Below are positions 13,436 to 41,322 of a stretch of 64,000 nucleotides of DNA, one piece after another. The first letter of the stretch is position 1. Every line of letters begins with the position of its first letter. Below the pieces are notes generated by a model that did no database searches, was not told where the DNA came from, and saw only the letters and a list, made by a program, of their open reading frames with translations. The translations under genes and the position numbers were made by a program. The stretch is from Escherichia coli (GTDB taxonomy: Bacteria; Pseudomonadota; Gammaproteobacteria; Enterobacterales; Enterobacteriaceae), in NCBI RefSeq assembly GCF_003334355.1, contig NZ_QOWP01000008.1; one strand, 5' to 3'.

Positions 13436-17264
<3,829 letters not shown>

Positions 17265-39406: not shown

Positions 39407-40591
39407 CTAAATATCTTTAATAAACAGCAGGCAAATTATCGCAATACCCAACATCCCTATCGCCAGCCAGAACAACGCATGGTAGCTCCAGATTTCAACC
39501 ATAATTCCGTCAACAGAGCCGGCGATAATCCAGCCGACGCGTGAAGTATTTGCATATAACGTTGTCGCAGAGCCTATTTTTTCAGGCATCAGGTCCTGAA
39601 ATTAAAGCATGCCGATACCACAGAGAATACCAAGGAAGATGGCATTAAGAATTTGCAATTCCAGCTCAACCGCCGGAGTCGTCGCCATGAGTACGCTGGC
39701 GTAAAAACACATTCCACTCACGATAGCAATGAGCATTAATAGTCGCTTGCCAATACGTTTCATGTAATAGCCTGCGATTAACATCATCGGAATTTCCAGA
39801 CCGGCAGCGATACCAATCATTTCTCCAGCCAGTTTATCGGTTAGATGCAGTTCATCAATAATAAATAGCGGCATATTTATCATGTAGAGATTATTCGCCG
39901 CCCACATCATTGAACAGACCACAAAAAGTAGCCGCGTATCCCGCTTCCTGTGGGTGGAGGGTAAAATTTCTACGGGTTGGGTAACGACAGGAATATTTCT
40001 TTGTATTGATGGCAAAAACAACCAGACTATCAGCCCGCAAACAACAAATGCGATGGCAGCGGTGAGATACATCACTTTAAAACTAAATCCCATTGCCAGT
40101 TCATAAGCGAGCGGTGGCCCGATAACCCAGGCAAGCGAGATCTGAGCACGTAAAAATGTACTGAACATGACCGTCTCACGGCCTGTTCTGTCGGCGTGTT
40201 CACGGGCGAGGGCGAACATTTGCGGGTTTGCGGTGGAAGCAAAACTACTCAGAAGTACGCCCGTTGAGAGGAGAATGAAGTAGTTGCGATTCCACGCAAA
40301 AAGCGTGCAGGCCAGCACTCCAAATAAGCAACATAGCAGAATCAGTAATTTACGGTCGCCTTGTTTATCGGAGTGCCTTGCCAGAAATTGACTGACCAGA
40401 ATTCCCATAATAGCGCTACCGGTGAAGAAAAAACCTACCATTATAGGACGGGCTTTCAGTTCATCTGCGAGGAATATACTTAGGGTAGGAGTCTGAAGAG
40501 CGCCCGCAATACCCGTCAGAAAGGCGACAAGTAAAAATGCCGCGGCAGTGAGATCAAGTATTTTTGATGGAGTGGTAGCCGTTTTTTGCAT
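39407..40591 (-). pseudogene. setC: MFS sugar efflux transporter SetC with an in-frame TAA at 39602-39604 (fragments of 329 aa and 60+ aa)
   Basis: ORFs 39602..40591 and 39407..39589 are in the same frame, separated only by a TAA and 4 sense codons; 329+1+4+60 = 394 codons, the length recalled for intact SetC. Confidence 0.7.
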
Positions 40592-41227
40592 TCTTCTGAA
40601 TCACCGGGCGAAAAAATATAACTGAGTTACAAATAAGTACCAGTCGAATGAGTATTGTATTAAGAATTTTTGAGTATCGCTGATACAACCAGAAAGCAAT
40701 GCTAGCGCAATATTATAGGGCCAGCAATTGAGATTATTAGCAAAAGCATGTTAAGAATTAATTACTGAATTTATATATTAATTATAGTAAGGCAATGAGC
40801 TATTTTTGATAGTAAAAATAAAACAAGTTGATTTGATATATTAAATGAACAAATTAATCTTGATGGCAGTCTGATTATTGGTGAAGTTTATAGTCAGTTT
40901 TTTTCGCCAGCGGTTAAAGAAATAGAATAGTCGTATAAAAAAGGGTGTTCTGGGGCGAGTAAAACAACATCTTCACCTTAATGGCGATACAGTTGGCTGA
41001 GAGTCAGCAGGGGGGCAAATCACCTGCAAATAAACACGGCGCATACTGGCGTGAATATCGCGGATGCGTTCGAGGACAGAAGAACCGACAGGCGGATTCT
41101 TCAGCCGCTCATCGTCCATCACAAAACCTTAGACCAGGTATTCCTGAAGCCGATTGAATATTGAGCAGTAGAAAATATCTGGATTGACAGTATTACAAGG
41201 GGTTGGAGAACGTCAGGAGAGGCATTT

Positions 41228-41322
41228 TGGCGGAAGATCACAGGAGTCGAACCTGCCCGGGACCGCTGGCGGCCCCAACTGGATTTGAAGTCCAGCCGCC
41301 TCACCGGAGACGACGATCTTCC
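41228..41322 (-). tRNA. selC: tRNA-Sec (selenocysteine tRNA)
   Basis: 95-nt sequence whose reverse complement reads GGAAGATCGTCGTCTCCGGTGAGGCGGCTGGACTTCAAATCCAGTTGGGGCCGCCAGCGGTCCCGGGCAGGTTCGACTCCTGTGATCTTCCGCCA, with anticodon TCA and encoded CCA end. Confidence 0.95.

Follow-up and report, generated by a model that had tools for sequence, protein, structure and literature searches.

It was concluded that the selC locus in the analysed stretch of Escherichia coli DNA (64 kb in length, hereafter the window) is very probably an unoccupied attachment site (attB), as predicted from its sequence, with a K-12-like configuration and with an old relic of a rhuM gene in its flank. The selC gene is a well-known docking site of mobile islands in E. 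coli. In the window, the tRNA gene was intact, the core of its 3' end was present in a single copy, and the junction beside it was one that is interrupted in relatives by integrase-bearing DNA with a duplicated att sequence. A tyrosine integrase, a bounding direct repeat and accessory cargo, by which an island would be recognized, were all absent from selC. The first-pass annotation of this DNA had described the site as empty; that observation was partly confirmed, and its interpretation was partly supported. The finding is correct in outline, ordinary and already known. The rhuM fragment beside selC is on record both in the PGAP annotation and as the K-12 pseudogene yicT (b4653), so nothing essential at the locus is new. 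The coordinates of the features are collected in the table below.

Table. Features of the selC region in the window and of the loci used for comparison (positions with the prefix L refer to the comparator loci).
Feature	Position	Strand	Basis and remarks
selC, tRNA-Sec (anticodon UCA)	41228-41322	minus	ARAGORN; Rfam RF01852; intact, encoded CCA end included
Predicted attB core, 3'-terminal 24 nt of selC (TTCGACTCCTGTGATCTTCCGCCA)	41228-41251	minus	present once in the window
selC-setC spacer	40592-41227		636 bp, measured from the 3' end of selC to the start codon of setC (40591)
Spacer part separating selC (3' end) from the rhuM fragment	41150-41227	none	78 nt, 41% GC
RhuM-family internal fragment, pseudogene	40988-41149	minus	tblastn, Pfam PF13310, PGAP; 162 bp, 52.5% GC
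yicT (b4653), K-12 pseudogene in NC_000913.3	40988-41119 of the window		begins 109 nt away from the 3' end of selC
AT-rich sequence upstream of setC	40592-40987	none	396 bp, 31.6% GC, single-copy, unannotated
Imperfect inverted repeat, 30 nt	40594-40623 / 40892-40921		70% complementary
setC, sugar efflux transporter	39407-40591	minus	ORF list; nonsense codon at 39602-39604
LF82 selC region	L003:6187-8480		RhuM at L003:7391-8428
LF82, degenerate repeat of the selC end	L003:7252-7279		with 10 nt of flank
Pseudescherichia vulneris, tRNA-Sec and rhuM	L035:803-2175	same for both
Morganella psychrotolerans, tRNA-Sec and rhuM	L034:9094-10363	same for both
E. albertii, selC, integrase and rhuM	L019:11271-14045	same for selC and rhuM
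ATCC 8739, AAA ATPase beside the integrase	L008:9824-11590

The tRNA-Sec gene was the sole tRNA gene recorded by ARAGORN in the whole 64-kb window. It was matched by the Rfam model RF01852 over its full length (model positions 1-91 of 91, 83.8 bits, E 2.8e-17), and its alignment with selC of K-12 MG1655 gave zero differences, hence the gene had rightly been called intact. An alignment with one MAG contig and three further Enterobacterales genomes showed the 34 nt at the 3' end of selC to be invariant. Since selC lies on the minus strand, its 3' side points to lower coordinates. The gene order was the same in the window and in K-12, namely nlpA, yicL, setC, the spacer, selC, yicJ and yicI. The spacer, earlier put at about 640 bp, measured 636 bp in both and differed from that of MG1655 by 2 SNPs, and selC as well as the rhuM fragment were 100% identical to their K-12 counterparts; the description of the site as K-12-like was thus borne out. 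However, the window was not K-12 itself, as 24 SNPs were counted in 6.6 kb and a nonsense codon in setC was private to the window. The 15 nt adjoining selC (41213-41227) were common to the LF82-type loci and to some island-bearing loci: the homology to LF82 stopped at 41213, and the island-bearing genomes matched selC together with those 15 nt.

The occupancy of selC was assessed by searching for a second copy of the tRNA 3' end and for integrase sequences. When the 24-nt core was searched for in the 64-kb window with up to 3 mismatches allowed, selC itself was the only match (0 further matches were expected by chance). A gapped search by blastn-short, in which selC, and its 3' half with 30 nt of flank, were used as queries, resulted in a best non-self score of 24.3 bits, which lay within the range of 20.3-26.3 bits obtained from shuffled windows in the same search. 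The integrase queries were two selC-linked integrases, from E. coli 2013C-4465 and Z1002. The best tblastn match in the whole window had an E value of 3.2, and the best match in the spacer alone, recorded with permissive settings, was 17 residues long with an E value of 0.074. Short direct and inverted repeats of 11-30 nt (70-93% identity) were present in the window and looked like chance. No block of island cargo was found at selC, where one 162-bp gene fragment was followed by setC after 396 bp. As the att core was present in one copy and no integrase was found, nothing is integrated at selC. The search of positions 40592-41227 for an att duplication or an integrase remnant, which the first-pass annotation had suggested, was therefore performed and yielded neither, and its statements that the site was empty, that an integrase was missing and that the tRNA 3' end was not directly repeated all withstood the searches.

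The att and integrase tests were able to detect a real insertion, since the att copies of 042 and ATCC 8739 were found in these occupied genomes. ATCC 8739 was used as a near-isogenic comparator, as it shared 99.9% backbone identity with the window across 24 kb. In this strain, a 10.4-kb P4-like satellite carrying an integrase, an AAA ATPase, psu, ogr/delta, an icd-like gene and a primase was located between selC and the rhuM fragment, and its attR, consisting of 17 nt of the selC end with a 4-nt deletion, abutted the flank seen in the window. The P4-like insert of E. coli 042 was bounded on its distal side by an attR that repeated 21 nt of the selC end exactly. BLAST matches reached 24-30 nt into selC. 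In O157:H7 strain 493/89, selC was followed by an integrase, a CP4-like remnant and the LEE. A P4-like insert at selC was also present in VG1046-3E9 and B-3008, two very close relatives. The comparison with island-bearing strains, likewise suggested beforehand, thus demonstrated that the junction was interrupted in ATCC 8739, 042 and O157:H7 493/89, but not in the window. These islands and P4-like satellites share the tRNA gene and its 3'-end core with the window, which, unlike them, was without an integrase, an attR copy or cargo. In the occupied strains of the ATCC 8739 and 042 type, the flank of the window was kept beyond attR, and the rhuM fragment was always found there, on the chromosomal side. 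A weak match to the PADLOC candidate PDC-S49 (E 1e-14; a prediction) was also recorded for the AAA ATPase beside the integrase of ATCC 8739.

Further, the frequency of the empty junction was determined in a set of 5426 complete E. coli genomes. The junction query comprised 223 nt, that is, selC and 128 nt of the flank, and was counted when covered contiguously. In this collection, which is weighted towards clinical isolates, the contiguous junction of selC and the flank was found in 2490/5426 genomes (45.9%), and the full 636-bp spacer was found in 3619 of them; it follows that about 1129 genomes have an insert between selC and the flank. Outside both classes, 845 genomes were of the LF82 type, and the remainder showed other arrangements, such as the LEE of O157:H7. 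The contiguous-junction class included EHEC O111:H- strain 11128 and a strain named ETEC1716. As both share the empty junction, an empty selC is no sign of a commensal, and the earlier view that the window reflected a commensal state had to be abandoned. The pathotype is set by many other loci.

The statement that island genes were missing altogether did not hold, as a 162-bp piece of rhuM was detected 78 nt from selC. By tblastn, it corresponded to residues 121-185 of the 345-aa RhuM protein of LF82 (63% identity, E 4e-18, 54 codons in one frame), and its peptide was matched by PF13310 (Virulence_RhuM) with an E value of 1.1e-10 at model positions 51-98 of 252. At the nucleotide level, 89% identity to LF82 rhuM was found in the aligned columns. 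The translation in the one minus-strand frame read LQEYLV*GFVMDDERLKNPPVGSSVLERIRDIHASMRRVYLQVICPPADSQPTV. Compared with LF82 RhuM, the fragment was damaged by one in-frame stop and two in-frame deletions, and since 54 of ~345 codons survive, the RhuM ORF is incomplete and the sequence is a pseudogene fragment, not a gene. Neither the fragment peptide nor the full-length RhuM had a match in NCBIfam or PHROGs.

In all K-type genomes inspected, among them 81EVA, MG1655 and PSS-12, PGAP had labelled the fragment a partial pseudogene of rhuM. The yicT pseudogene is the same fragment from its ATG onward, where an ATG-started ORF of 44 codons is found; a literature search for yicT together with selC gave no results. 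The fragment in the window was 100% identical to that in MG1655 and occupied the same position relative to selC. K-12, 042, IAI39 and GN03551, the first three belonging to phylogroups A, D and F, respectively, all had the fragment with the same boundaries. The stop codon was present only in the window and in K-12 among the genomes compared, and IAI39 had a frameshift instead. The identity to 042, IAI39 and GN03551 was 95-97% for the fragment and ~98% for setC.

An intact rhuM gene is located beside selC in other genomes. In the LF82 type, an intact rhuM, encoded on the strand of selC, was located 52 nt downstream of it, and the LF82 protein was matched by PF13310 with an E value of 6e-118. The setC gene, which is placed between the fragment and yicL in the window type, was absent from the LF82 type, where an AT-rich gene for a 165-aa hypothetical protein without a family match preceded yicL. 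The rhuM gene of LF82 was flanked by selC on one side and on the other by a repeat of the selC end in degenerate form, which read AGAGGCATTTTGGCG, a 4-nt deletion and ATCACAGGAGTCG; the deletion was the same as in attR of ATCC 8739. Being located between selC and a repeat of the selC end, rhuM lies inside an att-bounded insert in LF82. A RhuM-family gene (PF13310) directly downstream of selC and on the same strand is common to the LF82 type (B2), to the selC end of SPI-3 and, as a fragment, to the window; according to PMC9251186 and PMC3680342, sugR and rhuM of Salmonella SPI-3 are situated at the end of the island next to selC. In contrast to LF82, the window retained residues 121-185 only, with the stop and the two deletions, had no attR-like repeat and contained setC.

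RhuM was also surveyed by using the conserved coding motif MDDERLKNPP with one genome per species, which resulted in at least 80 readable loci from many phyla. Among the matches listed, 12 tRNA genes were identified by ARAGORN, and four of these were tRNA-Sec. In P. vulneris and M. psychrotolerans, rhuM began downstream of tRNA-Sec at a distance of 170-250 nt. The selC and rhuM genes of E. albertii were separated by a tyrosine integrase, truncated to 266 aa (E 1.7e-44 to PRK09692), and by one ORF. A 4.1-kb contig (L092) binned as a Sphingobacterium sp. MAG contained a tRNA-Sec gene with only 4 differences to E. coli selC in 95 positions, and its RhuM was 78% identical to that of LF82; with a tRNA-Sec of the enterobacterial type and such a RhuM, the contig was probably assigned to the wrong bin. 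RhuM has been proposed as a toxin domain on account of its occurrence within restriction-modification operons and its fusion to DOC domains (Anantharaman et al., PMC3710099). The RhuM protein of LF82 was matched by the phage-defence candidate PDC-S05 of PADLOC with an E value of 3e-173, which is a prediction. The recurrent linkage of selC and rhuM across genera and the candidacy of RhuM for defence are modest leads for studies of RhuM.

We proposed that the 162-bp rhuM piece is the leftover of an older, rhuM-carrying insert at selC. The tyrosine integrases of P4-like satellites and selC islands act on the 3'-terminal 17-24 nt of the tRNA gene; an intact tRNA is restored on integration, and part of its 3' end is repeated (attR) at the distal border of the insert. 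The old insert may have been worn down by deletions from either side before the split of phylogroups A, D and F, and later integrations at the tRNA end would push the rhuM relic outward. The few comparator genomes suggest a decay series leading from an integrase with rhuM, through rhuM alone between att copies, to the fragment. The same boundaries in A, D and F and the position on the chromosomal side of attR indicate that the fragmentation is probably old and unrelated to the present-day inserts. An old distal att copy that would mark the end of the presumed ancient insert was not found in the window by the gapped search. A wider reading was regarded as doubtful, namely that the "empty" flank of K-12 may be the last decay stage of a selC-specific rhuM element (represented in turn by E. 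albertii, LF82 and K-12), that selC may long have been a docking site of defence genes, and that the fragment and the AT-rich DNA may have been kept for the expression of setC or selC.

The part of the spacer nearest setC was the lowest-GC 396-nt stretch of the window, only 0.1% of the 396-nt windows being as low, against a mean of 51.8% for the whole window. The spacer had been described as AT-rich, which proved right for these 396 bp (31.6% GC) and wrong for the rhuM fragment (52.5% GC). The AT-rich stretch was found once per genome, unannotated, in 3630 genomes; diverged copies elsewhere in E. coli were not found by a distant-mode search, and no homology to the gene for the 165-aa hypothetical protein of LF82 was found by tblastn or blastn. 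In the Rfam search, no structured RNA was matched in the spacer and tRNA-Sec was the only match above the threshold; a sub-threshold match to a group II intron inside setC (E 0.87) was discarded. Promoter-like and terminator-like sites in the spacer showed no excess over shuffled sequence. The stretch is presumably the promoter and 5' region of setC. An AT-rich composition of this kind is typical of H-NS targets. The imperfect inverted repeat given in the table flanks the most AT-rich 268 bp; it was considered as an att remnant and rejected, and it is probably due to chance in low-complexity, AT-rich DNA.

The properties of the spacer also bear on an explanation in which the fragment and/or the AT-rich stretch would have been co-opted, be it for setC regulation, as an H-NS-bound silencer, as a small RNA, as a 44-codon small protein (yicT) or as a terminator or insulator of selC. 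This was judged to be quite improbable. The segment was indeed kept with the same boundaries across phylogroups, it includes the most AT-rich stretch of the window (the link to H-NS being general knowledge), and the ORF of yicT starts with ATG. However, the fragment diverged slightly more than setC, its reading frame had been interrupted by a stop in one lineage and, in IAI39, by a frameshift, and the whole segment was missing from about a third of the genomes; moreover, no Rfam family was matched and the promoter-like and terminator-like sites remained at the level of shuffled sequence.

It was also considered that the fragment could be the scar of a recent and imprecise island excision in this particular strain. 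The P4-like inserts at selC of ATCC 8739, VG1046-3E9 and B-3008 suggest that gain and loss are ongoing in the lineage, yet a recent scar was held to be highly improbable, as the fragment had identical boundaries in K-12, 042, IAI39 and GN03551 and was separated from the insert by attR in the occupied strains, where it lay on the chromosomal side, and as ATCC 8739 and the window differed at only 4 positions over the 2.5 kb preceding attR. With its shared boundaries and its place outside the inserts, the fragment is older than, and independent of, the inserts of today. A truly virgin site, in which a plain intergenic spacer would resemble RhuM by chance, agrees with the absence of an integrase and an att repeat from the window and with the missing NCBIfam and PHROGs matches of the peptide, but was hardly credible in view of the 89% nucleotide identity to LF82 rhuM, the two independent pseudogene annotations and a GC content that stands apart from the AT-rich rest, and the profile score, together with the tblastn score for 54 codons in a single frame, refuted a chance similarity to RhuM.

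The importance of the locus beyond correct annotation is small. Fossils of earlier cargo can persist at a tRNA integration site that is empty, and counts of occupied and unoccupied sites should therefore be based on the att duplication and the integrase rather than on any foreign-looking sequence. An empty selC says nothing on the pathotype.

The setC gene of the window differed from those of K-12 and 81EVA at codon 330, where TAT was replaced by TAA (Tyr330 to stop, Y330*), resulting in a predicted protein of 329 aa instead of 394 aa. When 41-mers of both alleles were counted in the 5426 complete genomes, the nonsense allele was found in 0 and the wild-type allele in 3782 genomes. The nonsense codon is either private to the strain or a sequencing error. 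The genomes closest to the window were phylogroup-A-like, for example PSS-12 and 81EVA. PSS-12, the closest complete genome, contained a 777-bp IS1 in a gene for an AraC-family regulator, which was absent from the window (~16969-16987), and otherwise differed from it by ~10 SNPs per 24 kb.
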